DNA of 24,000 nt, from assembly GCF_001999305.1 (NCBI RefSeq), contig NZ_MLHQ01000015.1:1-24000 (forward strand), read 5' to 3'. Shown piece by piece: positions 1-20,659 of this stretch. Made by a program: the position numbers and the translations under genes. The notes under the pieces were generated by a model. The model saw only the letters and a list, made by a program, of their open reading frames with translations. It did not search any database and was not told the DNA's origin. Position 1 is the first letter of the stretch, and each line of letters begins with the position of its first letter. This DNA comes from Rodentibacter myodis (lineage in GTDB: Bacteria > Pseudomonadota > Gammaproteobacteria > Enterobacterales > Pasteurellaceae).

Positions 1-359
<359 letters not shown>

Positions 360-388
360 TTGATTTGATGAATTGAAATCAAAGTAAG

Positions 389-421
389 AAGGCAGATCGA
401 AAGATCTGCCTTTTGTTTTTT
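389..421 (+). terminator. Rho-independent terminator after tuf
   Basis: Perfect stem aaggcagatc (389-398) / gatctgcctt (403-412) with loop gaaa, followed by a T-rich run ttgtttttt. Confidence 0.85.
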
Positions 422-457
422 AATAAACAATGATCATTTGAGCTTTCTTTATCAAAG

Positions 458-466
458 AAGTGCGGT
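458..466 (+). repeat. Uptake signal sequence (USS) core
   Basis: Perfect AAGTGCGGT followed by the AT-rich tail cattttc. Confidence 0.9.
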
Positions 467-519
467 CATTTTCTTTTTTATTTTTGATATGATACAGAAA
501 AATTTTGGAGGATTATTCT

Positions 520-1338
520 ATGCGAAAACAACCTTTCCGTGCTGTTGTTTCTGATCTTGATGGTACCTTGTTGAATGCTAATCACGTTGTAGGTGATTTT
601 ACTATTGATATTTTAAATCGTTTGGAGCAACAAGGCGTTGATCTCATTCTTGCGACAGGGCGAAATCATACGGATGTTTCTTCTATTTTAGGAAAAATTG
701 GTGCTGAACGTGCGGTAATGATTACCTCAAATGGTGCAAGAGTAAGAGATTTAGAGGGCAATCTTATTTATAGCAATAGTTTACCGGAAGATATTGTATT
801 GGCACTTTATAAAACACCTTTTGATAACAGTCGTATTTGTTTAAATGCTTATCAAGATGAAGGTTGGTTTATTAATACGGATGTACCGGAACTCAAAGCA
901 TATCATCAAGATTCTCATTTTATGTATGAAGTGGTTAATTTCTCCCAACACCACGCACGAGCTGTTGAAAAAATTTTCTTTATCGGAAAAACACCCGAAG
1001 ATTTAGTTGAGGTTGAGCATTATTTACGCGAGCATTTTGGTGATGTAGTAAACATTGTTTATTCCGGATTAAGTTGCTTAGAAGTGATGAATAAAAATGT
1101 TTCTAAGGGTGAAGCATTAAAGTATGTACTGGCACAGAGGGACTACAATCTAGAAGATTGTATCGCCTTTGGTGATGGAATGAATGATGTGGAGATGCTA
1201 AAAAGTGTAGGGAAAGGGTGCATTATGGGAAATGCCGATATTCGTCTAAAACAGGCTTGCCCTTCACTTGAGCAAATCGGTTTAAATAAAGATGAAGCGG
1301 TGGCGCAATATCTTAAAAATATGTTTGAAATAAAATAA
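520..1338 (+). CDS. Cof-type HAD-IIB family sugar phosphatase
   Basis: HAD motif I is DLDGTLL near the N-terminus and motif IV is GDGMNDVEML. Length and cap region are typical of the Cof/YidA/YbiV group. ATG at 520 is preceded by GGAGG (507-511). The track start at 505 is a TTG. Confidence 0.9.
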   Translation: MRKQPFRAVVSDLDGTLLNANHVVGDFTIDILNRLEQQGVDLILATGRNHTDVSSILGKIGAERAVMITSNGARVRDLEGNLIYSNSLPEDIVLALYKTPFDNSRICLNAYQDEGWFINTDVPELKAYHQDSHFMYEVVNFSQHHARAVEKIFFIGKTPEDLVEVEHYLREHFGDVVNIVYSGLSCLEVMNKNVSKGEALKYVLAQRDYNLEDCIAFGDGMNDVEMLKSVGKGCIMGNADIRLKQACPSLEQIGLNKDEAVAQYLKNMFEIK

Positions 1339-1742
1339 TGTGGCAATCATTGTTATCTGTAAGTTGTGGGGCAGCACTGGGCGCCTTGTCGAGATGGGGA
1401 TTAGGTTTATGGCTTAATTCTCTTTTTTCTTATTTGGCTTTTGGCACATTACTGGCTAATTTAGTTGGCTGTTTTTTGATGGGAATAATGATTGCCATAT
1501 TTTGGCAATATCCTCAAATGAATACGCTATGGAAGTTATTTATTGTCACCGGATTTTTGAGCGCATTTACTACCTTTTCCTCTTTTTCTGCCGAAGTGAT
1601 TGAATATTTTATGTCGGATAAATGGCTAAAGGGTATTTTGATTATTTTTTCCCATTTGTTTGGTGGTTTGCTTTGTACAACCTTGGGGATTTTTATAGGA
1701 CGAATATTAGTTAAAAATCTTCTTCAGGAGCAGAACCGATAA
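1338..1742 (+). CDS. crcB: Fluoride ion channel CrcB/FluC
   Basis: A 134-aa protein with four hydrophobic helices, the CrcB-type motif FTTFSSFS and N-terminal GAxLGALxR. Its ATG overlaps the upstream stop (TAATG), which suggests translational coupling. Confidence 0.9.
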   Translation: MWQSLLSVSCGAALGALSRWGLGLWLNSLFSYLAFGTLLANLVGCFLMGIMIAIFWQYPQMNTLWKLFIVTGFLSAFTTFSSFSAEVIEYFMSDKWLKGILIIFSHLFGGLLCTTLGIFIGRILVKNLLQEQNR

Positions 1743-2169
1743 AGTCAGAGAATTCCTCGCTGTAAAAGCCGTGGGAAAGCATATATTGCCAAATTTTTTG
1801 CTTATTTTTGGGCATTTGCTTTTCGGCATAGTTGGGGAATTTTTTTCTTAATGTCGCAAAAGCAAGGGATGACCAATCAATATCAGATTCATAAAAAGCC
1901 TCTTCAACCACATCATTGGTTACTCCTTTTAGCTGACGAAGCTCTTGTTTAATTCTATTTACCCCATATCCTCGCTGAGATCGTGCATTGATATAATTCT
2001 CGGCAAAACGTTTATCATTTTGCCAATTTTTTTGTTGGCAATATGTCAATACGTACTCAATTTCTTCCTCAGAAAATGCTTTTTCCTGCATTTTATTTCG
2101 GAGTTCAAATTCACTGTATTCTCTGCGGGCAAGTAACTTGACCACATAGCCTAAAACAAGTGAAGACAT
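1711..2169 (-). CDS. recX: RecA regulator RecX
   Basis: A 152-aa protein directly downstream of recA on the same strand. It shows the helical-repeat RecX pattern (LLARREYSEFELRNKM..., NDKRFAENYINARSQRGYG..RIKQEL). A GGGGA Shine-Dalgarno lies upstream of the ATG. Confidence 0.9.
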   Translation of the reverse strand: MSSLVLGYVVKLLARREYSEFELRNKMQEKAFSEEEIEYVLTYCQQKNWQNDKRFAENYINARSQRGYGVNRIKQELRQLKGVTNDVVEEAFYESDIDWSSLAFATLRKKFPNYAEKQMPKNKQKIWQYMLSHGFYSEEFSDFIGSAPEEDF

Positions 2170-2183
2170 TGTTTTTCCCCATA

Positions 2184-2226
2184 AAAAGTGCGGTTAAAAT
2201 TTGAAGAAAAATTTAACCGCACTTGA
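2184..2226 (-). terminator. Inverted USS pair forming a hairpin between recA and recX (probable partial terminator/attenuator)
   Basis: AAGTGCGGTTAAA (2186-2198) pairs with TTTAACCGCACTT (2212-2224), giving a 13-bp stem. On the minus strand the hairpin is followed by TTTTAT. Confidence 0.6.
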
Positions 2227-2234
2227 TTATTAAT

Positions 2235-3290
2235 TTATTCGTCTTCTGAAGATTCTTCTTCGACTTGTTCAATATCTGCCATTAATGATTGCTCAGGATT
2301 AGCAACCAACTCGGCACGAAGTCTGGTTTCTAATTCTGCCGCTTTCTCGGTATGTTCATTTAACCATTTCATTGCATTGGCTTTACCTTGACCAATTTTT
2401 TCACCATTGTAAGCATACCAAGCACCCGATTTATCCACAAGTTTATGTTTTACACCCAATTCAATTAACTCGCCTGCTTTGGAAATACCTTCACCATAAA
2501 GGATTTGGAAATCTACCTGACGGAATGGAGCAGCAAGTTTATTTTTTACGACTTTTACTTTTGTTTCATTACCAATGATTTCCTCGCCATCTTTTACAGA
2601 GCCCGTACGGCGAATATCTAAACGCACAGAAGAGTAAAATTTGAGCGCGTTACCACCGGTTGTGGTTTCCGGATTGCCAAACATTACACCGATTTTCATA
2701 CGAATTTGGTTGATGAAAATCACCAAACAATTCGCACTTTTAATTTGACCGGTTAATTTACGCAATGCTTGAGACATTAAACGTGCTTGTAACCCCATAT
2801 GCGAATCACCCATATCGCCTTCAATTTCCGCTTTTGGCGTAAGGGCTGCAACGGAGTCCACAATCACCACATCGACAGCACCAGAGCGAACAAGTGCATC
2901 ACAAATTTCAAGCGCTTGTTCACCGTTATCCGGTTGAGAAACTAATAATTCTTTTACATCTACGCCAAGTTTTGCGGCATAAATAGGATCAAGTGCGTGT
3001 TCGGCATCAATAAATGCACAGGTTTTGCCTGCTTTTTGGGCTTGCGCGATAACAGATAAAGTGAGTGTGGTTTTACCGGAAGACTCGGGCCCAAAGATCT
3101 CAACGATACGTCCCATTGGCAAACCGCCGATCCCTAATGCCACATCAAGTCCGATTGAGCCGGTTGAGATCGATTCAACATCAAGTGCTTTGGTATCCCC
3201 TAATTTCATAATAGAGCCTTTACCAAATTGTTTTTCGATTTGTCCTAATGCTGCGGCAAGCGCTTTTTGTTTTTCTTCTTGAGTAGCCAT
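2235..3290 (-). CDS. recA: Recombinase RecA
   Basis: A 351-aa protein with Walker [10 protein letters not shown] and a near-canonical RecA sequence throughout (IMKLGD..., [18 protein letters not shown]). Confidence 0.99.
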
Positions 3291-3323
3291 TTTTTAACCT
3301 TTTATGTTATCAAATTTGTGTAG

Positions 3324-3352
3324 ATTGTATCTGTATTGATATACAGTATCAA
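3324..3352 (-). promoter_or_regulatory. Putative sigma70 promoter of recA
   Basis: On the minus strand, -35 TTGATA (3352-3347), a 17-bp spacer and -10 TACAAT (3329-3324). The SOS box fills the spacer, the same layout as the E. coli recA promoter. Confidence 0.6.
3329..3348 (-). promoter_or_regulatory. LexA (SOS) box in the recA promoter
   Basis: The minus strand reads TACTGTATATCAATACAGAT, which contains CTGT-N8-ACAG as in the gammaproteobacterial consensus TACTGTATATATATACAGTA. Confidence 0.8.
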
Positions 3353-3491
3353 GTGAATTTTTGATCTTTATGATAAAAATGTGAGTCAGCTCGTAGAATC
3401 AGGAAGAAAATGCTAAAAATTAGGGACGTTATCCCTTTCTGGTCAGAATAAAGCAAACGGTATATTCTCGATTCTAATAGTTTTTCGTGAT

Positions 3492-4493
3492 TTAACAGGA
3501 TTTTCCTATCATTAAAGGACAAGCCAGTTTATGACAATCTACATTTTTATGTCCTTCAATTAAATGTAAGGCAGCCTGTTCTCCCATTGCGTAATGAGGT
3601 AATTCTACGGTTGTGAGCGGCGGTATAAATAAATGAGCGATCCCTATCGTATTATCATATCCCGTTACTGCAATATCTTCAGGAATACGGTAGCCGTGGC
3701 TTAATAGTAATTGGTATGCTACAAAAGCGATTCGGTCGTTTCCACAAACAATCACATCATAATCGAGCTTTTTTGGTTGTTGTAGCATTTCGAGTAGTGG
3801 TTTGGCACCTTCAAAATAATCTTCCCCGTCTTCTTGCATAAAGTAGTTATCGATTTTTACACTCTCTTTTGGCGCTTGAGAAAAAAACGCTTTTTCAAAG
3901 CCTTCTTTTCGTGCTTTTGTAGCAATGTAATTATGTGGAATATGCAGAAATAATGGTTTTTTATAACCCTTTTCAGCCAATAATTTTCCAATTTCATATT
4001 GTCCTTGAAAATCATCGGGAATATAGCTTGCCACCGGTAAATCATTGGTCACACAATTTGCCAAAGCAATGGGAAACTGGCGTAATTTTTCAGGAATTTT
4101 CACCCTCTTTAACCCATTACGGGCAATAATAATCGCATTCGGGCGATGAGATACAAGCTGTTCAACCGCTTGCTCCATTTCTATTTCATCGTTTTCAAAA
4201 GCATTAATAACATAAGAATGCCAACCAAATTTGCGAACCGTCCTTTCTATACCTAATAAAATCTCAACAGAAAAAGGTGTTGTTGCCGTACCAAGAGACA
4301 ACACGCCAATCGTTTTTCCCGCTACACCGCGAATATTTTGTGCGGCAAAATTTGGTACATAACCGAGTTGATCAATGGCTTGTTTTACTGTTTGATAGGT
4401 TTTTTCGGATAATTTGTTGGGATTATTAATTGCTCGCGATACCGTCATCATTGAGACACCGGCTAAGTCCGCAACATCTTTAAGTGATACCAT
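3492..4493 (-). CDS. LacI/GalR-family transcriptional repressor (probable regulator of the adjacent lacYZ genes)
   Basis: N-terminal HTH LKDVADLAGVSMMTVSRAINNP, a periplasmic-binding-protein-like core and the YDN..G motif (VTGYDNTIG). AGGAGG lies upstream of the ATG. The gene is divergent from lacY. Confidence 0.9.
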   Translation of the reverse strand: MVSLKDVADLAGVSMMTVSRAINNPNKLSEKTYQTVKQAIDQLGYVPNFAAQNIRGVAGKTIGVLSLGTATTPFSVEILLGIERTVRKFGWHSYVINAFENDEIEMEQAVEQLVSHRPNAIIIARNGLKRVKIPEKLRQFPIALANCVTNDLPVASYIPDDFQGQYEIGKLLAEKGYKKPLFLHIPHNYIATKARKEGFEKAFFSQAPKESVKIDNYFMQEDGEDYFEGAKPLLEMLQQPKKLDYDVIVCGNDRIAFVAYQLLLSHGYRIPEDIAVTGYDNTIGIAHLFIPPLTTVELPHYAMGEQAALHLIEGHKNVDCHKLACPLMIGKSC

Positions 4494-4579
4494 AAACCTT
4501 TCCCTCCTTTTTTATTTCTAGAAAGTTTTTTGATTTATTATCCATTTATTTAATTTAGATCATACGCTGTTTTTACTGA

Positions 4580-4597
4580 ATTATTAGCGTTAACTGC
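4580..4597. promoter_or_regulatory. Weak LacI-type operator-like site (mostly a half-site)
   Basis: attattagCGttaactgc matches the right half GTTAAC of the two better sites, but its own two-fold symmetry is poor. Confidence 0.3.
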
Positions 4598-4626
4598 AAA
4601 ATCGTTCTCTATTTTTATTAACTTTA

Positions 4627-4644
4627 AATGTTAACGTTAAAATC
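4627..4644. promoter_or_regulatory. LacI-family operator candidate (distal)
   Basis: aatgttaaCGttaaaatc has a core TTAACGTTAA that is a perfect palindrome with the central CG typical of LacI/GalR operators. Confidence 0.6.
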
Positions 4645-4660
4645 TGTGATTAACATCACA
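4645..4660. promoter_or_regulatory. CRP (cAMP receptor protein) binding site
   Basis: TGTGAttaacaTCACA is a perfect TGTGA-N6-TCACA core. Confidence 0.75.
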
Positions 4661-4677
4661 AATTAGCCAAATTTAAT

Positions 4678-4705
4678 TTGTTAAAATAAATGTTATCGTT
4701 AACAT
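4678..4705 (+). promoter_or_regulatory. Putative lacYZ promoter
   Basis: -35 TTGTTA (4678-4683), a 16-bp spacer and -10 TAACAT (4700-4705). The CRP site centre (about 4652.5) would then lie near -60, a class I-like position. The hexamers are weak. Confidence 0.35.
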
Positions 4706-4706
4706 T
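4689..4706. promoter_or_regulatory. LacI-family operator candidate (promoter-proximal)
   Basis: AATGTTAtCGtTAACATT is an 18-bp palindrome (16/18 symmetric) with a central CG, about 37 bp upstream of the lacY ATG. It overlaps the putative -10. Confidence 0.7.
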
Positions 4707-4734
4707 AAGAGGGAATACTTTTAGGGAGTAAAAA

Positions 4735-9062
<4,328 letters not shown>

Positions 9063-9075
9063 CTAAATTGAGCAA

Positions 9076-9112
9076 ACGAAAAGTGCGGTTAAATTTGACT
9101 GCATTTTTTCGT
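9076..9112. terminator. Imperfect hairpin containing a USS (9081-9089) between convergent lacZ and recQ; possible bidirectional terminator
   Basis: acgaaaagtgc (9076-9086) pairs with gcattttttcgt (9101-9112) with one G-T wobble and one bulged T, around a 14-nt loop. The T/A-rich arms give U-tracts in both orientations. Confidence 0.45.
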
Positions 9113-10962
9113 TATCCCCTTTTCGCTTTTTCCAAAATCGCCTTGTGTTCTTCAATTAAGCTCATAAAAGGTTGGGCGAAGCGTTCGAGTTTTATTGAGC
9201 CAACACCGTTAATTTGTAGCATTTCAATGTTGGAACTTGGCATATATTGCGCCATTTCTTGTAAGGTGGCATCGTTGAATACAATGTAAGGGGGAATGTT
9301 TTCTTTGTCGGCAATTTGTTTGCGTAAGAAACGTAAACGGGCAAAAAGATCTTTATCATAGCTTGTCAAAGTGCTGCGTTGTGGATTATGGGCGATTTTG
9401 CTGATTGCGGAAATACGTGGCATTGCAAGCTCGAGTGTCACTTCACCTTTTAACACGGGTTTTGCACTTTCGGTCAGTTGTAGCGTTGCGTTGAAATCAC
9501 CGATCACTTGTTGCACAAATCCGAGGTGAATAAGCTGGCGAATCACCGATTGCCAATGTTCTTTGCTTTTCTCTTTGCCAATGCCATATACGCTGAGTTT
9601 GTCGTGTTGGCGTTCAATAATTTTTTGATTTTGCATTCCACGTAGCACGGCAATCACATATTGCACGCCAAAACATTGCCCGACACGATAAATGGTGGAC
9701 ATCACTTTTTGTGCATCCACTAAACCGTCATATTTTTTTGGCGGATCAAGGCAAATATCACAGTTATTGCAAGGTGTTTGGCGATGTTCGCCGAAATAAT
9801 TCAGCAAAACCAAACGGCGGCAGGTTTGACTTTCGGCAAATTCACCAATTGCTTCCAATTTATGTTGTTCAATTTGGCGTTGTGGGCTTTCCGGTTTTTC
9901 CAATAAAATTTTTTGTAACCAAGCGTAATCTGCCGGATCATAAAATAATACGGCTTCAGCAGGTAAATCATCACGGCCGGCACGACCGGTTTCTTGATAG
10001 TAGGATTCAATGCTACGGGGCAAATCGAAATGCGCCACAAAACGTACGTTAGATTTATTGATCCCCATTCCAAAAGCAATGGTTGCGACAACAATTTGTA
10101 CGTTATCACGCTGAAAATCCTGTTGCACCCGCTCACGTTGGGCGGTTTCCATTCCGGCGTGATAAGCGGCGGCGGAGATGCCTTTGTTACGCAAACTTTC
10201 CGCAATGCGTTCCACTTTGTTACGGCTGTTGCAATAAATAATGCCGCTTTTTCCTTTTTGTGCCAGTGCAAACCGAGTAAGTTGTTCCATCGGTTTGAAT
10301 TTTTCTTCTAGGGTGTAGCGAATGTTAGGGCGGTCAAAGCTCCCGATATATTGATATAGATTTTGCAGTTTAAGATGAGTGAGAATATCTTGTCGCGTGG
10401 CATAATCAGCGGTTGCCGTCAGTGCCATAATCGGAGCATTCGGAAAACTGGCTTTTAAGCCGCCAAGTTGGGTATATTCGGGGCGAAAATCGTGTCCCCA
10501 TTGGGAAATACAATGGGCTTCATCAATGGCGATAAAACTGACTTGACGATAGGAAATGAGTTGAAAAAAACTGTTGGTCATCACCTTTTCCGGTGACACA
10601 TAAAGCAGTTTGAGCTGTCCGCCAATCAGTTTATTTTGTACCTGTTGTTGTTGCTCCGGCGTTTGGCTGGAATTGAGAAAATCCGCTTCAATACCATTGG
10701 CTTGTAATTGATCCACCTGATCTTTCATCAAGGAAATTAATGGCGAAATCACCAATGTTAATCCCTCAAAGCAGAGGGCAGGAATTTGATAGCAAAGTGA
10801 TTTACCGTTTCCTGTTGCCATCACCACCAACGTATCCTTCCCCTTCAGTGCAGCGTTGATCACTTCTTCCTGCCCTTTGCGGAAAGATTGATAGCCGAAA
10901 ACTGAATTTAATACGGAAAGTGCGGTGGATTTTTCCGTTGTTTTTGGGGAAGGCGTGGTCAT
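9112..10962 (-). CDS. recQ: ATP-dependent DNA helicase RecQ
   Basis: FGYQSFRKGQEEVI, Walker A ATGNGKSLCYQIPA, DEAH box IAIDEAHCISQWGHDFRPEY, the zinc-binding cluster CRR...CNNCDIC and a C-terminal HRDC region (IVFNDATLQEMA). The start is placed at ATG 10962, one nt after the cyaY stop. The track start at 10995 is a GTG inside cyaY. Confidence 0.93.
   Translation of the reverse strand: MTTPSPKTTEKSTALSVLNSVFGYQSFRKGQEEVINAALKGKDTLVVMATGNGKSLCYQIPALCFEGLTLVISPLISLMKDQVDQLQANGIEADFLNSSQTPEQQQQVQNKLIGGQLKLLYVSPEKVMTNSFFQLISYRQVSFIAIDEAHCISQWGHDFRPEYTQLGGLKASFPNAPIMALTATADYATRQDILTHLKLQNLYQYIGSFDRPNIRYTLEEKFKPMEQLTRFALAQKGKSGIIYCNSRNKVERIAESLRNKGISAAAYHAGMETAQRERVQQDFQRDNVQIVVATIAFGMGINKSNVRFVAHFDLPRSIESYYQETGRAGRDDLPAEAVLFYDPADYAWLQKILLEKPESPQRQIEQHKLEAIGEFAESQTCRRLVLLNYFGEHRQTPCNNCDICLDPPKKYDGLVDAQKVMSTIYRVGQCFGVQYVIAVLRGMQNQKIIERQHDKLSVYGIGKEKSKEHWQSVIRQLIHLGFVQQVIGDFNATLQLTESAKPVLKGEVTLELAMPRISAISKIAHNPQRSTLTSYDKDLFARLRFLRKQIADKENIPPYIVFNDATLQEMAQYMPSSNIEMLQINGVGSIKLERFAQPFMSLIEEHKAILEKAKRG
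10918..10926 (+). repeat. USS core
   Basis: Perfect AAGTGCGGT, inside recQ. Confidence 0.9.
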
Positions 10963-13970: not shown

Positions 13971-15959
13971 ATGCCTCATTCCAATTTAAAAGAACTCACC
14001 CTTCGTGGGATTATTCTCGGGGCGTTAATTACGGTGATCTTCACTGCTTCTAACGTCTATTTAGGGTTAAAAGTCGGGATGACTTTTGCCTCATCTATTC
14101 CTGCCGCCGTTATTTCTATGGCAGTGCTGAAATTCTTTAAAGATTCCAGTATTTTGGAAAACAATATGGTGCAAACCCAAGCTTCGGCAGCGGGAACACT
14201 TTCTTCCGTGATTTTCGTTTTGCCGGGCTTATTAATGATGGGTTACTGGAACGATTTTCCATTTTGGCAAACGATGTTGATTTGTGCCTCCGGCGGTACG
14301 TTGGGCGTGTTATTCACCATTCCATTACGCCGTGCGATGGTGGTAAATAGTGACTTACCTTATCCGGAAGGTGTAGCCGCAGCGGAAATTTTGAAAGCCG
14401 GTAATAATGAAAACGGCGACAGTGGCGTGAAAGACATTGCTTACGGTGGTGTGTTAGCCGCTTTGGTGGCATTTTTAACAAACGGTTTGCGTGTGATGGC
14501 AGATGGTGCGAGCGCGTGGATTCAAAGCGGAAAAGCGGCATTTCAATTGCCGATGGGCTTCTCCTTAGCATTACTCGGCGCGGGCTATTTAATCGGTATC
14601 GTGGGCGGTATCGCAATGTTAATCGGCACGGTTTTAACTTGGGGTGTTGCTGTGCCGTTTTTCACTGCTTCGGGCGATATGCCGGCGGATATGAGCCTGA
14701 TTGATTTTGCAATGACAACGTGGAAAACCAAAGTGCGTTTTATCGGTGTCGGTACGATTGGGATTGCGGCAATTTGGACATTATTGGTGCTAATGAAACC
14801 GATGGTGGAAGGAATGGTACATTCGTTCCGTATGTTGAAAGGTGAACACGCCGAATCCGAACATCGCATTGATATTGACCTTTCCCCAAAAACAATGATT
14901 TATATTTTGATTGCAACCGTGGCATTGATTGTCATTTCGTTACATCATTTTATTGCGGCCGCCCCAATTTCACCTGAACTTGCTATTTTGTTGGTGGTAG
15001 TTTGTACGTTCCTTGCCGTATTTATCGGTTTCTTTGTAGCGGCGGCGTCCGGTTATATGGCAGGATTGGTGGGGTCTTCTTCCAGCCCGATTTCCGGTAT
15101 CGGGATTATTTCCGTGATTGTGATTTCCCTTGTGTTGGTGTCTATTGGTAATGCAGCCGGTTTATTTGAAACCGCAGAAGGTCAGAAATTTTTGACCGCA
15201 CTTACGCTCTTTACCGCTTCTATTGTATTAACCACTGCAACCATTTCTAACGATAATCTGCAAGATTTAAAAACCGGTTTATTGGTAGAAGCCACGCCTT
15301 GGCGTCAGCAGGTGGCATTGATTATCGGCTGTTTTGTGGGGGCGTTGGTAATTGCACCGGTGTTGGAAATTCTTTATCACGCTTATGGTTTCAGCGGTGC
15401 ATTACCGCGTGCGGATATGGATCCAAGCCAAGCCCTTTCTGCGCCACAAGCCACTATTATGACCACCATCTCACAAGGTATTTTTTCTAACCAATTAGAA
15501 TGGACATACATTTTAAGTGGTGTGGGATTAGGTGCGATTTTAATTGTGATTGACGCTTTCTTGAAAAAAATCAGCCGTAACGCTTTCGCTCTTCCTGTGT
15601 TGGCAGTCGGGATCGGTATCTATTTACCGCCGTCTATCAATATGCCGGTAACCATTGGCGCATTTTTAGCGTGGTTTATCAATCGCCACATTGCGAAGAA
15701 AGGTAATAAAGAAATTTCCGCCAAAGCAGAACGTTTCGGCACATTATTTTCGGCAGGCTTAATCGTTGGCGAAAGTTTAATGGGGGTGATTTTAGCCTTC
15801 ATCATTGCCGCCTCGGTGACTTCCGGTGGATCTGAAGCCCCTCTTGCTTTAAATCTTGAAAACTGGGGTAGCATTGGTGAAGTGTTAGGTTTAGTGGTCT
15901 TTATTCTCGGTATTGCGATTTTCGCCGCCCGTGTATTACGTGCGAAAAAATCTGATTAG
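13971..15959 (+). CDS. OPT-family oligopeptide transporter (integral membrane)
   Basis: A 662-aa polytopic membrane protein. The N-terminal ELTLRGIILGALITVIFTASNVYLGLKVGMTFASSIPAAVISM and the internal NDNLQDLKTG motif are typical of bacterial OPT-superfamily proteins (as I recall, H. influenzae HI_0561-like). Confidence 0.9.
   Translation: MPHSNLKELTLRGIILGALITVIFTASNVYLGLKVGMTFASSIPAAVISMAVLKFFKDSSILENNMVQTQASAAGTLSSVIFVLPGLLMMGYWNDFPFWQTMLICASGGTLGVLFTIPLRRAMVVNSDLPYPEGVAAAEILKAGNNENGDSGVKDIAYGGVLAALVAFLTNGLRVMADGASAWIQSGKAAFQLPMGFSLALLGAGYLIGIVGGIAMLIGTVLTWGVAVPFFTASGDMPADMSLIDFAMTTWKTKVRFIGVGTIGIAAIWTLLVLMKPMVEGMVHSFRMLKGEHAESEHRIDIDLSPKTMIYILIATVALIVISLHHFIAAAPISPELAILLVVVCTFLAVFIGFFVAAASGYMAGLVGSSSSPISGIGIISVIVISLVLVSIGNAAGLFETAEGQKFLTALTLFTASIVLTTATISNDNLQDLKTGLLVEATPWRQQVALIIGCFVGALVIAPVLEILYHAYGFSGALPRADMDPSQALSAPQATIMTTISQGIFSNQLEWTYILSGVGLGAILIVIDAFLKKISRNAFALPVLAVGIGIYLPPSINMPVTIGAFLAWFINRHIAKKGNKEISAKAERFGTLFSAGLIVGESLMGVILAFIIAASVTSGGSEAPLALNLENWGSIGEVLGLVVFILGIAIFAARVLRAKKSD
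15195..15203 (-). repeat. USS core
   Basis: Perfect ACCGCACTT, inside the OPT gene. It is the last USS before the island. Confidence 0.9.
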
Positions 15960-15989
15960 TCCCTAAAATTCTCAGTATTATACAGTTAA

Positions 15990-16019
15990 AAAATCCACCT
16001 TCTACGAAGGTGGATTTTT
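15990..16019 (+). terminator. Rho-independent terminator of the OPT transporter gene
   Basis: Stem tccacctt (15994-16001) / aaggtgga (16007-16014) with loop ctacg, an A-run before and TTTTT after. Confidence 0.85.
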
Positions 16020-16020
16020 A

Positions 16021-16176
16021 TTATAGCCGGATACTTATTATTAAAGTCTTTCTCAATAATCGATCGAAAAACCTCTCCATAGCACCATTATCAAGGCAGT
16101 TACCTTTTTCCGCCATACTTTGTTTCATCCCCTTTTCCTTCAATAAATTTTGATAAGCCTGCATTTGATAAAGTGA
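16021..16176 (-). pseudogene. Remnant of an IS3-family (IS150-like) transposase, C-terminal part of the rve/DDE domain
   Basis: The minus-strand frame reads ...SLYQMQAYQNLLKEKGMKQSMAEKGNCLDNGAMERFFDRLLRKTL... with no start codon. It matches the conserved IS3-family block YQ..Y..LL...G...SMSRKGNC.DNA.ME.FF..LK.E. Only about 50 codons remain, truncated on both sides. Confidence 0.55.
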
Positions 16177-16184
16177 AAAAATCG

Positions 16185-16229
16185 CAAGGAGTATACTCCT
16201 TGTTGTTATCTCTTTACAGAGATAACAAC
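16185..16229. repeat. Two abutting perfect inverted repeats (an 18-bp palindrome, then a 12-bp-stem hairpin)
   Basis: caaggagtatactccttg (16185-16202) is a perfect palindrome. gttgttatctct (16202-16213) / agagataacaac (16218-16229) forms a stem with loop ttac. Function is unknown. Confidence 0.6.
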
Positions 16230-16547
16230 TCCTCTTGCTAAACTTTTTTAAGGAATGTTTGAGGGGGAATAAATGGTATTAAAACTTCGTAATTTCAATA
16301 GGTTATCATTAATCTTTAGCTTTAGGTAACGCGGTCTATTGCTTCTCTTTTGAGCAAATAGAATTCTATGAACCGGAGTAACAGGATTTAAGATTGTTTG
16401 AGTTTACGGATCCTTAGTATCAGGAGAGATTAAGAAAAATATGGGTTTTTCTTTTTCTAAAAATAAGAATACGTGCTTTACTTTCAATTGTTTACGTTAT
16501 GGTGAGCACAGTTTTTAATTAACGATGATTTAATATAGGTACCTTAT

Positions 16548-18224
16548 ATGAACAATTTAATTAAATTTAGCTTAACTCTTGTTGCTGCAGGTATTTTGGC
16601 TGCTTGTGGTTCATCAGGTGGTTCAAGTAATAATGCAGAGGCAGAAAAAGCTGCACAACAGCAAGCCGCAGAAAAAGCAGCTGCAGAAAAAGCAGCCGCA
16701 GAGAAAGCAGCAGCGGAAAAAGCTGCAGCTGAGGCTCAAGCAAAAAAAGATAATGCAGCTGTTAACCGTGGTGGTAAATTTGTAAATAAAATTGGTTCTG
16801 ATCTTATTTTAGATAACGACACTAAAGGTCAAAATTTGAACCGTATGTCTAACAATGCCGAAATGACAGTTCCATTTGAAACTTATAGTGATGGTAGTGC
16901 TTCGGCTTCTGCTCGTTTAGATACAGTTGTAGTGGGTACACCTAATCCAAATCAAAAATCCGGAAAATTAGGTTATGTTGAAGATTTTGATTTTGTTGGT
17001 AATACGGCAAACAACGGCGAAACCACTTTATCAACAATCTATCTTGTAAATGAAAACGATAAAACTGATGCCTCTAAAACTACAGTAGGTGGAACCGCTC
17101 GCGCTAAAACCGAAACCAAAACATCAACTGCCGGTACTGAAGCGGGTAAAGCATTTGTTTATGATAACCAAGACCGTGTGGATTATACCAACCACGGAAA
17201 CACCGGTGGACGCAGTGATGTTGTATTAAAAGACTCTGTAGCTGAAGTTTATGGACACCGTACTTTTGCTCAAGATTATACACAAGATACCGAGAACGGT
17301 ACTAAATATGGTAATAAAGCAGATCAAAGCAATTTACCTTTAGTTACTGCTAAAACCGACCGCTTAGGTAATACTTATTTTGAAGCTCATCAAGTAAGTA
17401 CTCAAGATGGTGTGACTACAGTAAAAAATGCATTAGGACACGAAAATACAGGGGCTGCGGATAGCTATACCGGTGCAACATTACAACGTGTTCAATATGG
17501 TCGTGTTACTTCATCGTTAAATGATTCGGCTTACTTAGAGAATCAAGGACTTTATAAAGATGGCGTGGCACCGAATACCTTTGTGGTAAATTACGGTGAA
17601 TACGGTGATAAAGGTACTGAAAATAACTATTTCTATCGCGGTGTACAACCAACAACTAAAGAAGAGTTAGCGAAATTATCCGGTACTTTAACTTACCAAG
17701 GTCATGCTGTTGCATTTGGTTTACATAATCCGGCGACAGATGGTGTGGCAGGCCCTGTTACTAACACAACGAATGGTGCAGATAATCCCGCTAACGCGGT
17801 TTCAGCAAGACCTTCTGTGACAACAACTACTCCGGCGCCGGCAAATTGGGCATTAAAATCCGGTCACCATGTACAAGCAACGGTTGATTTGGCAACTAAA
17901 GCTGTAAGCGGTAGTGTTTATGATGTTTATCAAAAAGCAAATGCGGCTGACCGTGTTCAAACTTTAGCAACCTTCAAAGGTGATGTTGCTGCACAAGGTA
18001 ATATTGCAGGTACTTCTGCTAAAGCATACGGCGATAAAGCAACCGGTTCTTTCCAAGCAAACTTATTTGGTCCACAAGCTCAAGAGTTAGGCGGTTCAAT
18101 TATTTCTGATGCGAAAGACGCTAATAAATGGGGTGCGGTATTTGGCGCGGTTAAAACCGGCGGTCCTGTTACATTAGACAATCCATTTGCTGCATCAACA
18201 GATAAAAATAACAATTCTAACTAA
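16548..18224 (+). CDS. Surface lipoprotein with a TbpB-like C-terminal beta-barrel (putative Slam-dependent cargo); ligand unknown
   Basis: Signal peptide with lipobox LAAC (Cys20, Gly at +2), a GSSGGSSNN tether and an (A)AEKA repeat stalk. The C-terminal region shows the motif series of TbpB/LbpB/HpuA-type barrels: NNYFYRGVQPTTKEELAKLSGTLTYQGHAVAF, ATVDLATKAVSGSVY, FKGDVAAQGNIAGT, GSFQANLFGPQAQELGGSI, WGAVFGAVK. A Slam gene is adjacent. Confidence 0.85.
   Translation: MNNLIKFSLTLVAAGILAACGSSGGSSNNAEAEKAAQQQAAEKAAAEKAAAEKAAAEKAAAEAQAKKDNAAVNRGGKFVNKIGSDLILDNDTKGQNLNRMSNNAEMTVPFETYSDGSASASARLDTVVVGTPNPNQKSGKLGYVEDFDFVGNTANNGETTLSTIYLVNENDKTDASKTTVGGTARAKTETKTSTAGTEAGKAFVYDNQDRVDYTNHGNTGGRSDVVLKDSVAEVYGHRTFAQDYTQDTENGTKYGNKADQSNLPLVTAKTDRLGNTYFEAHQVSTQDGVTTVKNALGHENTGAADSYTGATLQRVQYGRVTSSLNDSAYLENQGLYKDGVAPNTFVVNYGEYGDKGTENNYFYRGVQPTTKEELAKLSGTLTYQGHAVAFGLHNPATDGVAGPVTNTTNGADNPANAVSARPSVTTTTPAPANWALKSGHHVQATVDLATKAVSGSVYDVYQKANAADRVQTLATFKGDVAAQGNIAGTSAKAYGDKATGSFQANLFGPQAQELGGSIISDAKDANKWGAVFGAVKTGGPVTLDNPFAASTDKNNNSN
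16665..16724 (+). repeat. Four imperfect tandem 15-bp repeats encoding AAEKA units
   Basis: The units are gccgcagaaaaagca / gctgcagaaaaagca / gccgcagagaaagca / gcagcggaaaaagct. They differ only at synonymous positions. Degenerate copies flank them (16635-16745). Confidence 0.85.
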
Positions 18225-18244
18225 TTTGGGTTTTTTATTCGTAA

Positions 18245-18274
18245 ACAGTCCACCTAAAAGTGGGCTGTTTTTTT
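18245..18274 (+). terminator. Rho-independent terminator between the lipoprotein gene and the Slam gene
   Basis: Stem acagtccac (18245-18253) / gtgggctgt (18260-18268), 9 bp with one G-U pair, loop ctaaaa, followed by a T-run to 18274. Confidence 0.75.
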
Positions 18275-18295
18275 CTATAACATAAGAAGGTCGTT

Positions 18296-19768
18296 ATGAA
18301 AAAATATTCCCTTTCCATTGTATTTGGTATGTTATTAACATTGCCTCATTTTAGTTATGCCCAAACCGTTAATATAAGAGATGTTGAAAAAACAAAAATA
18401 GAAACGGATAAAATTAATACTAAAACAGTTCAAGAAGATCTGTTACGACAAGAAATGTTAAGTGGTGAACAAGAATTTAAATTATCCGAAAACGCTAAAG
18501 CAGATTTAATAAAAAATTCAGTTCAGTTAGAACAAGCGATTGTTCAGGCACTTATTTATCGTAATATAAAAGCATTACCTGAATTAATTTCAGTATATCG
18601 ACAAGTTAATGATCGAGATGATTCATTAATTGAATGGGCAGATGCCATCTTATCAATTAATAATGATCTTGATGAGTCTATAAAAATTTATCGTAAACTT
18701 ATTTCGGCTTTTCCTGATAATTCTTTTATTCGCTATCAACTTGCTGAAACTTTATTTTTTAACCAAGAGTACGAAGCCGCAAAAAGCCAATTTGAGAAAA
18801 TAAGAACAACGGTTTCTAACCCTAAAGATGTTGAAGTGATCAATCGCTATATTGATGTGATTAATTCTAAAGAGCAGTGGAATTTCTCATTTGGTACAAC
18901 TTTTTTAAATGATCCTAATCTTGCCGATGCTGCTGATGAGGGTACACAAATGACATTACAAAATGGTGCTGTGCTTACCTATAATACACCAAAACAAAAA
19001 GGACAAGGTATTTCAGCTTGGTTTGGGGCGGATAAACAATGGGCATTATCTAATGGAAAATATTTAAAACTTAGTTCGGGAATGAGTGGAAAATATTATT
19101 GGGATAATAAACGTTATAATGATTTGGATACTAATATTGGGCTGGGATTTGGCTATTCAAATGCGAAGTTTAATATTGAGTTTATGCCACGTGTTTACAA
19201 AAGATGGTATGCAGGTGGATATAATTATGGCAATGCACTTAAACGTTATTCAACCAATTATGGCGCAAGCATAACGACTAATTATTGGTTGACACAACAA
19301 CTAAAATATACATTTAGCTACAGCTTTGGTTATGATAAATATGACAGAGAAGTGAATGCTAACCAATATGACGGCCCTGCACATTATTTTACTAATGCGC
19401 TATCTTATTTACCAAGTGCAAAACAATATTGGATGCTTGCAGTAGATCTTTCTCGTAAAAAGGCGAAAGATCATAGTAATAGTTATTCCCGCTATGGAAC
19501 GCGTTTGGTTTGGGGACAGGAATGGCCGCTTGGAATATCCAGTGCGATCTCTTTAGGTATAGCAAAACGTAACTATAAAGAAGCAAGTTTTTTAGGTAAA
19601 CAGGAAAATAAAGAATATTCATCAGGTGTTTCTTTATGGCATAAAGAAATTCATTATGCAGGTTTTACACCTCGAATTACTTGGAATTATACAAAAACTG
19701 ATAGTAACATTCCGTTTTATAGCTATGACAAATCGCTGATATTTATTGAAGCCAGTCGAACATTCTAA
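18296..19768 (+). CDS. Surface lipoprotein assembly modulator (Slam), DUF560-family outer-membrane protein (type XI-like secretion)
   Basis: Sec signal peptide (...LPHFSYA/Q). The N-terminal helical TPR-like region is IKIYRKLISAFPDNSFIRYQLAETLFFNQEYEAAKSQFEKI. The C-terminal roughly 300 aa show an amphipathic beta-strand pattern rich in Y/W/G/N. The C-terminus reads ...GFTPRITWNYTKTDSNIPFYSYDKSLIFIEASRTF, ending in an aromatic residue as in Neisseria Slam1/2 and other DUF560 proteins. A GAAGG Shine-Dalgarno is present. Confidence 0.88.
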   Translation: MKKYSLSIVFGMLLTLPHFSYAQTVNIRDVEKTKIETDKINTKTVQEDLLRQEMLSGEQEFKLSENAKADLIKNSVQLEQAIVQALIYRNIKALPELISVYRQVNDRDDSLIEWADAILSINNDLDESIKIYRKLISAFPDNSFIRYQLAETLFFNQEYEAAKSQFEKIRTTVSNPKDVEVINRYIDVINSKEQWNFSFGTTFLNDPNLADAADEGTQMTLQNGAVLTYNTPKQKGQGISAWFGADKQWALSNGKYLKLSSGMSGKYYWDNKRYNDLDTNIGLGFGYSNAKFNIEFMPRVYKRWYAGGYNYGNALKRYSTNYGASITTNYWLTQQLKYTFSYSFGYDKYDREVNANQYDGPAHYFTNALSYLPSAKQYWMLAVDLSRKKAKDHSNSYSRYGTRLVWGQEWPLGISSAISLGIAKRNYKEASFLGKQENKEYSSGVSLWHKEIHYAGFTPRITWNYTKTDSNIPFYSYDKSLIFIEASRTF

Positions 19769-20199
19769 TTTTTCAATATAATAAAGTAAGCATTTTCTAA
19801 TTAACTTTAAATAGGAAGTGCTTATTTTATATCTATTATTTTTATCTAAGTATAGTGATGAAATGAATTATGCCGCCTTAAACTTTTTATTGAACTGCTT
19901 AATTTGAGGAAAAAAGCCTTTATATTTGTAAGTTAGTGAAAAGCCTGACTGTAAGTAAATACAATGACAGGATCGCAGGTTTTAGATAACTGAAACAAAA
20001 AGCAAAGTCTGTCGTTGTCGGTGATACTGTCACCGCTGAAATAATCGGCAATTTCGGTATTGGTTTTCGCTTGGGGTTGTTGGCTGAACGATGGTGCTTT
20101 CTTCTTTTCTGTTGTTTAATAGCTCTTGAGTATCTTGTATCTCAATGAGAAGCCAAAATATCAACATAAGGATTCTATAAAAAAGGGCTATTTTCCTAT

Positions 20200-20233
20200 A
20201 AAATAGGCTATCTTTTCCGATAGCCTATTTTTT
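20200..20233 (+). terminator. Hairpin plus T-run ending exactly at the ATG of the next gene (terminator or regulatory stem)
   Basis: aaaataggctatc (20200-20212) / gatagcctatttt (20219-20231) with loop ttttcc, and the T-run continues to 20233. An upstream direct copy ggctattttcc (20186-20196) allows an alternative stem ctatttt / aaaatag. Confidence 0.55.
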
Positions 20234-20659
20234 ATGAAGCCTTATCTTAAAACACTCATTTTATTTCCCTTGATGTTACAGGTGTTGGCAACAGCATTAT
20301 TTGGTTTTTTAGATGCGGATCTTAGCCCGATGCCTTTCAGTCGTTATGTTGTTACCGCATTTTTCCTCGCCACCATTCCCGCTTTTCTTATCGCCCTTAT
20401 TGCCACAAGGTTTGGCTATGTTCGCCATAATATTGCCGCTATTGTGTTATGTTCATCTTTAGTTGCTTTTTGTTATTGCAACATTGCGGCGTATTTCTAT
20501 TTGTTGGTGATGAGCGAAGAAACGCCCTCATTTTGGCAATGGATCACCGAAGGAGGATTATCCCTTGGGCTACTAAGTGTGTGCGGAATGGTGTTTTATT
20601 CGTTGTTTGTCATACCGTGGTTGTTGCCAAAAGAAAAATCCTCATCGCCCGATTGTTAA
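20234..20659 (+). CDS. Small integral membrane protein of unknown function (4 predicted TM helices)
   Basis: A 141-aa ORF with four hydrophobic segments. Its stop lies 10 nt before the cysQ ATG, and the cysQ Shine-Dalgarno overlaps its 3' end. No recognisable Shine-Dalgarno precedes its own start. As I recall, an equivalent small ORF (HI_0560) sits here in H. influenzae. Confidence 0.55.
   Translation: MKPYLKTLILFPLMLQVLATALFGFLDADLSPMPFSRYVVTAFFLATIPAFLIALIATRFGYVRHNIAAIVLCSSLVAFCYCNIAAYFYLLVMSEETPSFWQWITEGGLSLGLLSVCGMVFYSLFVIPWLLPKEKSSSPDC

Follow-up and report, generated by a model that had tools for sequence, protein, structure and literature searches.

A lipoprotein-Slam islet 3' of the OPT transporter gene of Rodentibacter myodis, very probably acquired horizontally and probably left over from a larger composite island

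Why does a gene pair for a predicted surface lipoprotein and a Slam-type outer-membrane translocon stand, in Rodentibacter myodis, between an oligopeptide transporter (OPT) gene and a small membrane-protein gene that are neighbours in 11 of 13 congeners? We addressed this question for a stretch of 24,000 bp (the window; positions 1-24,000 of contig C7 of the R. myodis genome, G000, which comprises 2.47 Mb in 54 contigs) by comparison with the genomes of 13 other Rodentibacter species, one genome per species; the OPT gene was placed in 60 relatives and the DNA 3' of it was compared in 20 genomes. We report that the segment 15973-20192 is very probably a horizontally acquired accessory islet, and probably the remnant of a larger composite island at the same site. 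An earlier note on the window had likewise proposed a horizontally acquired accessory island, and this agrees with empty sites in relatives, with atypical GC content, overall and at third codon positions (GC3), and with gene trees and levels of synonymous divergence at odds with those of the flanks.

The left flank is the OPT gene (13971-15959, plus strand; PF03169, E 1e-106; TIGR00733, E 4e-284), the product of which is 92-93% identical across all 13 congeners, and the right flank is a gene for a membrane protein of 141 aa (20234-20659, plus strand), situated between the insert and cysQ, with zwf thereafter. In 11 of the 13 congeners, and also in G017, a neighbouring-genus genome with an OPT 90% identical to that of the window, the membrane-protein gene (one to three copies) begins within approximately 55 bp of the OPT gene, and cysQ and zwf come after it, while three more distant genera have the layout OPT-cysQ-zwf. 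The contiguity of these four genes, which the earlier note had given for H. influenzae Rd, is therefore seen in 11 congeners and one neighbouring-genus genome, and the lipoprotein-Slam pair does lie in an insertion relative to that layout, with empty-site alleles present among close relatives and in outgroup genera. When six empty sites are aligned to the two ends of the segment, the junctions fall at 15972/15973 and 20192/20193, each fixed within approximately 3 bp; the insert (15973-20192) is thus 4,220 bp long and begins slightly further to the left than the limits of about 16020-20200 first suggested for it. The variation seen at this site is variation between species.

The empty sites also identify the original transcription terminator of the OPT gene. 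There, a hairpin with 20-nt arms (90% complementary) is the sole element between the OPT and membrane-protein genes; it stands directly 3' of the OPT stop codon in every empty-site genome, about 20 bp from it, with no scar in between. In the window the same hairpin is found at 20193-20238 (plus strand), i.e. the islet sits in the spacer of 50 bp that separated the OPT gene from its original terminator, and the insertion has pushed that terminator 4.2 kb downstream. The hairpin that now follows the OPT gene (15988-16019, plus strand; perfect 14-nt arms and a T-run) had been taken for the OPT terminator, but it is island DNA: it is missing from the empty sites and is kept in the two other island-bearing species, R. 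haemolyticus (G010; 90% identical) and a second congener (G002; 100%). Judging from its sequence, the OPT transcript would now end at this island-borne hairpin.

Two genes make up the coding content of the islet. The first (16548-18224, plus strand) is predicted to encode a surface lipoprotein of 558 aa, with a signal peptide that ends in LAAC (Cys20 being the lipidated residue), a helical stalk (Ala/Glu/Lys), a middle domain to which no fold is assigned and a C-terminal TbpB-type beta-barrel (TbpB_B_D, PF01298, E 9e-15, residues 378-536). An AlphaFold2 model based on 44 homologues has a mean confidence score (pLDDT) of 50 and is confident only for the helix 29-69 and the barrel strands within 357-537 (pLDDT approximately 70-90 over most of 360-540); for the middle domain (approximately residues 80-355) the run gave no usable model. 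The nearest relative is a 91% identical R. haemolyticus protein annotated as "transferrin-binding protein-like solute binding protein", and the other close matches are also from Rodentibacter. The second gene (18296-19768, plus strand), separated from the first by a terminator-like hairpin with a T-run (18243-18270, plus strand; 11 pairs), encodes a Slam (type XI secretion) outer-membrane translocon of 490 aa (PF04575, E 4.5e-74; PF24575, TPR_Slam, E 7.8e-26), which is 94% identical in R. haemolyticus. Searched by sequence against solved structures, the lipoprotein had no match and the Slam matched only a designed TPR protein. Surface translocation of lipoproteins is established for characterised Slams (PMC8406197), and by analogy the Slam would carry the adjacent lipoprotein to the cell surface.

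In R. haemolyticus and G002 the same site is filled by much larger islands, in which the lipoprotein and Slam genes lie directly 3' of OPT and cysQ follows 27 and 32 kb further on, respectively. The order between the OPT and membrane-protein genes is lipoprotein, Slam, cdiB, cdiA, small open reading frames (ORFs) with orphan cdiA 3' modules, and an autotransporter gene. Here, cdiB encodes a 584-aa ShlB/POTRA protein and cdiA a two-partner secretion protein of 3,900 aa with haemagglutinin repeats and a PT-VENN domain (contact-dependent inhibition, CDI), whereas the far end carries, on the opposite strand, a pertactin-type autotransporter of 746-763 aa; the annotated gene calls of four complete genomes with the G002 allele agree with this content. 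Within-island CDI genes occur only in these two species, and cdiB and cdiA are absent from the island of the window.

To the right of the Slam gene, however, the window retains pieces of such an island. The tract 19769-19889 (plus strand), which includes an imperfect hairpin, is where the DNA in common with the larger islands runs out at the deletion breakpoint: homology stops at 19846 relative to R. haemolyticus and at 19889 relative to G002, and in both cdiB comes next. At 20008-20089 (minus strand) we found a relic of the proline-rich linker of the autotransporter (approximately residues 419-471), which by blastn matches the orthologous spot in both autotransporter genes (77 bp at 75%, E 5e-7, in G002; 51 bp at 86%, E 3e-9, in R. 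haemolyticus; tblastn E approximately 1e-3). Finally, 20121-20192 is the right end of the island and corresponds to the region upstream of the autotransporter gene at the right ends of the two large islands; blastn homology begins at 20153-20155, the alignment reaches back to approximately 20121, and this DNA is missing from the empty sites. The relic and the right end keep the order and orientation of the large islands. Because an internal coding scrap and the upstream region both remain, the island of the window would once have held at least the autotransporter gene, and the islet is probably a deletion derivative of a larger island. As the earlier note had stated, the tracts 16177-16547 and 19769-20233 are non-coding (neither has an ORF of ≥60 aa); both are explained as scars. 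Elsewhere in the R. myodis assembly, contig C37 (1,089 bp) encodes an autotransporter beta-domain 55% identical to that of the R. haemolyticus island autotransporter.

Base composition points in the same direction. The GC content of the islet is 0.358 compared to 0.409 for the genome, so that it ranks among the lowest 3.8% of genome segments of this length (4.2 kb), and the GC3 values of the lipoprotein and Slam genes (0.215 and 0.208) are the 17th and 15th lowest among 959 long ORFs (mean 0.379, sd 0.057), 2.9 sd under the genome mean. The earlier note had also pointed to a desert of uptake signal sequences (USS). Its count of 18 perfect cores (AAGTGCGGT) in the window, with none between 15203 and 20841, is correct, but a second 8/9 near-match (20354-20362, outside the island) has to be added to the one at 17257-17265. 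Genome-wide there are 1,850 USS (0.75 per kb), and the 5,646-bp gap is only the 16th longest of 1,804; since an exponential model expects approximately 23 gaps of this length by chance, the desert, although real, is not exceptional by itself and is weak evidence. At the genome-wide density, zero USS in the 4.22 kb of the island has a P of approximately 0.04, and the second-longest gap in the window (2224-6174) spans approximately 3.95 kb. USS are not missing from the larger islands, which have 7 in 27 kb and 10 in 32 kb, but none of these is in the lipoprotein-Slam-cdiB part. Composition thus supports a foreign origin better than the USS desert does. As a separate observation, the longest USS gaps of the genome (11-16 kb; C53:59145-74804, C21:17481-30359 and C6:60629-85222) coincide with several of the long ORFs of lowest GC3, and these stretches are likely to be larger foreign islands.

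How the pair relates to its host genomes can be read from the trees. In an rpoB tree the three carriers and the empty-site congener G012 form one clade (support 1.0) in which R. haemolyticus and G002 are sisters, and the three carriers also group together in a cysQ+zwf tree; a single acquisition at the base of the carrier group is the simplest account. The synonymous divergence (dS) between R. myodis and R. haemolyticus is 0.39 for the lipoprotein and 0.55 for the Slam gene, against 1.1-1.4 for the OPT 3' end, the membrane-protein gene, cysQ and zwf, and the nucleotide identity is 89% over 3.7 kb of island against 81-84% over 10 kb of flank on both sides (87% in one 440-bp piece). R. haemolyticus and G002, on the other hand, have a flank dS of 0.25-0.78, yet their lipoproteins and Slams are only 52-55% identical. 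In sliding windows, the identity of the R. myodis islet to G002 is ≥90% over 16434-16734, which covers the ribosome-binding site, signal peptide and stalk, falls to background from approximately 16735, amounts to 60-70% in the Slam barrel and is back to 85% from approximately 19650. When the islet is compared to lipoprotein-Slam loci of other genera, nucleotide conservation is limited to the same two segments (leader/signal-peptide/stalk and the 3' end of Slam). Moreover, a tree of lipoproteins places each of the two Rodentibacter alleles with proteins from other genera, among them those of the two separate pairs of H. parainfluenzae T3T1. The lipoprotein-Slam cassette is consequently mosaic, with one allele shared by R. 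myodis and R. haemolyticus and a divergent one in G002, and the alignments fit an allelic replacement that would have occurred by homologous recombination.

H. parainfluenzae T3T1 (G160) has two separate lipoprotein-Slam pairs of this subfamily, and each lipoprotein matches one of the Rodentibacter allele types. Around one lipoprotein-Slam pair, G086 and this strain, which are placed in different genera, are 94% identical in nucleotide sequence over 11.5 kb. A recent transfer between genera, suggested by their near-identical Slams, was considered and set aside, as similarity over 11.5 kb allows for close kinship; it could reflect a large transfer or a genus split that is finer than the sequence divergence suggests.

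Several points weigh against the interpretation of the islet as an acquired remnant of a larger island. The autotransporter relic is short (51-77 bp aligned, with E-values of 1e-7 to 1e-9 in a small database). There is no clear target-site duplication or terminal repeat at the junctions, only an ambiguous TTC(C)T at both. The three carriers are kin, each represented by one genome per species, and do not count as independent cases, and the USS desert was dropped as evidence of foreign origin after the genome-wide gap count. The low dS of the island could partly reflect a strong third-position A/T bias; counter to this, the lipoprotein and Slam genes reach a proportion of synonymous differences (pS) of 0.55-0.65 relative to G002. 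Lastly, compared with the islands of R. haemolyticus and G002, no relic of cdiBAI was found in the window, and the CDI genes may have entered only the lineage of these two species, with an ancestor of the composition lipoprotein-Slam-autotransporter.

The missing cdiBAI relic also speaks for a second explanation, namely that the 4.2 kb islet is the original small form and that the islands of R. haemolyticus and G002 grew by later insertion of the CDI and autotransporter genes. So does the position of the R. myodis orthologues of cdiB and cdiA, which sit elsewhere (contig C52:7055-10290) and are 71-73% identical to the R. haemolyticus island copies. Later growth does not, however, agree with an islet that keeps an internal autotransporter fragment together with its upstream region, in the order and orientation of the large islands, nor with a breakpoint just past the Slam terminator at the point where cdiB comes next in both relatives, and we consider it unlikely.

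The left end of the islet raises the question whether an insertion sequence (IS) brought the pair in. The earlier note had seen a start-less transposase fragment, truncated at both ends, as the mark of the insertion. That it is a transposase fragment is confirmed by its match to an IS3-family profile (NF033516, E 5.3e-12, positions 286-326 of 369) at 16051-16173 on the minus strand, within a stop-to-stop frame at 16021-16278. The approximately 41 residues keep the region around the GNCxDN...E motif, score 45.7 bits against a family cut-off of 160 bits, are 57-66% identical to annotated plasmid-borne IS3 transposases and, over 38 aa, are 63% identical to the multicopy IS3 element of G002; around 16021-16176 neither a matching pair of inverted repeats nor an orfA was found. 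This is a transposase remnant and not a full element, and the R. myodis assembly contains no intact IS3 or second copy of the relic; all that it has is a fragment at the end of contig C47, which is unrelated. Its role as a marker is another matter. R. haemolyticus and G002 share the junctions of the island, but at the place of the relic, with the island terminator on one side and the conserved leader on the other, they have in common an unrelated stretch of approximately 190 bp, and no IS3 match was found inside their islands; the relic is thus internal and lineage-specific and does not mark the acquisition. On the same grounds it was ruled out as a boundary marker or a vehicle.

An IS3 element that delivered the pair, either as a composite transposon or by one-ended transposition with the relic as its leftover arm, is accordingly very unlikely, even though the relic lies just 48-80 bp inside the left junction, a 5-bp TTC(C)T duplication at the junctions is possible, and IS3 elements are active in the genus (at least eight identical copies in G002 and at least three in R. 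haemolyticus). In addition to its absence from the two other islands, the relic lies on the inner side of the island-borne terminator, away from the edge, both a second IS arm and inverted repeats are lacking, and the nearest IS3 element from three congeners is only 63% identical over 38 aa. An imperfect direct repeat of 16-17 nt (82-88% identical; 15980-15996 and 16168-16184) brackets the island terminator and the relic; it may be due to chance, as both copies are A-runs leading into hairpins. Next to the relic, the conserved leader and promoter tract of the lipoprotein gene (16177-16547, plus strand) contains hairpins at 16184-16203 and 16202-16229 and is 70-98% identical to R. haemolyticus and G002 in 150-bp windows. 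An Rfam scan of the island, including this leader, gave no family at gathering score, and the two non-coding tracts had no match in the rest of the genome or in the lipoprotein-Slam loci of other genera.

The least probable account is that the lipoprotein-Slam locus was ancestral to the genus and deleted in most species, which could be argued from a Slam gene of one type or another in 205 of 236 Pasteurellaceae genomes and from the kinship of the carriers, whose shared island is readable as retention in one clade, but against which stand an empty site that is scar-free and structurally identical in 11 congeners and a neighbouring genus, the OPT-cysQ-zwf arrangement in distant genera, the nesting of the carriers in one clade, the low GC3 of the island and the unrelated loci at which orthologous lipoprotein-Slam pairs of other genera sit.

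With an acquired remnant as the preferred explanation, we infer the following course of events. A larger island of 27-32 kb, with lipoprotein, Slam, cdiB, cdiA and cdiI genes, orphan toxin modules and an autotransporter gene, would have been the source of the islet. Most simply, a first deletion, from cdiB into the autotransporter gene, would have taken the 3' half of the latter, and a second one its 5' half, such that a scrap of approximately 80 bp stayed behind. Separately, an IS3 element would have entered the pre-existing island near its left end and decayed to the 41-codon relic. The islet itself is not self-mobile, since it lacks an integrase (the ORF listing has no integrase-sized ORF within the island), a tRNA target (a tRNA scan found no tRNA gene in the window) and clear terminal repeats. 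The family is naturally competent, and the islet would most likely spread, and swap alleles, by homologous recombination through the flanking core genes or through internal conserved anchors. The left anchor would be the segment of leader, signal peptide and stalk, and the right one the 3' end of Slam.

The insertion site is recombinationally active even where the island is absent: congeners hold one to three tandem copies of the membrane-protein gene directly 3' of OPT, and these have diverged (44-77% identity to the window copy). A further-reaching idea, which we put forward only tentatively and regard as possible rather than likely, is that the spacer between the OPT and membrane-protein genes serves one Rodentibacter clade as a dedicated hot spot of recombination, where surface and competition modules are assembled, swapped and pruned and where the lipoprotein body together with most of Slam forms an exchangeable cassette. 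If true, whole ligand-binding specificities could move between species and genera by transformation.

Pairs of a Slam and its lipoprotein substrate are known from several bacteria: Slam1 with TbpB, LbpB and fHbp and Slam2 with HpuA in N. meningitidis, PmSLP and its Slam in P. multocida, and nilB/nilC in Xenorhabdus. The R. myodis pair resembles these in that a DUF560 (PF04575) protein with an N-terminal TPR region adjoins a lipobox lipoprotein with a C-terminal TbpB_B_D barrel. It differs in that the lipoprotein is without a relative of solved structure and combines one barrel only with a long stalk of Ala/Glu/Lys and a middle domain that AlphaFold2 failed to model, and in that the pair belongs to a composite island in decay, with genes for CDI and an autotransporter. 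Mosaic surface-antigen loci are likewise familiar in transformable mucosal bacteria, e.g. the tbpB alleles of Neisseria and Pasteurellaceae. The locus shares with them deeply divergent alleles at one site, sharp breakpoints in conserved flanks and conflict between gene trees and the species tree, whereas here the exchanged unit is the lipoprotein body and most of Slam, and the locus as a whole is an insertion in one clade.

In common with tRNA-linked genomic islands, the islet has presence and absence among relatives, atypical composition, cargo related to the surface and to competition, and a transposase relic. Unlike such islands and integrative elements it lacks an integrase, a tRNA target and flanking direct repeats, and at 4.2 kb it is an islet. 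As for the relic, it matches the C-terminal part of the IS3 integrase core, including the GNCxDN...E motif, but in contrast to an intact IS3 it retains approximately 41 of 369 profile positions and no start codon, orfA or inverted repeats. That Slam-lipoprotein pairs are acquired horizontally and occur in varied genomic contexts has already been described, and was proposed for nilB/nilC (PMC8406197), and a report on PmSLP in P. multocida describes another lipoprotein of this general kind (PMC10075479). A literature search gave nothing specific on Rodentibacter islands among its top matches.

Regarding the rest of the window, Pfam and NCBIfam searches with the small membrane protein (20234-20659) gave no family match, and exact-protein look-ups with this protein and the Slam found no further contigs. 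The part 1-9118 (recA and lacI-lacY-lacZ, including the USS-free 2224-6174) has no counterpart in the 12.5 kb to the left of OPT in R. haemolyticus, where homology begins at recQ (9119), and the lac module may be another variable segment.

Nothing in these data overturns current understanding. What the analysis adds are the precise boundaries of the islet, the scars that explain both non-coding tracts, the link to a CDI/autotransporter island and the pattern of cassette exchange; for annotation, the true OPT terminator has been identified. For the family, which is naturally transformable, the locus provides a clean and well-bounded case of Slam-lipoprotein pairs that move and decay, and in Pasteurellaceae such pairs are candidate host-interaction factors and vaccine antigens. 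One chromosomal site can be empty, carry a remnant of 4 kb or carry an island of 30 kb with genes for interbacterial competition, and the lipoprotein allele at that site is replaceable wholesale.

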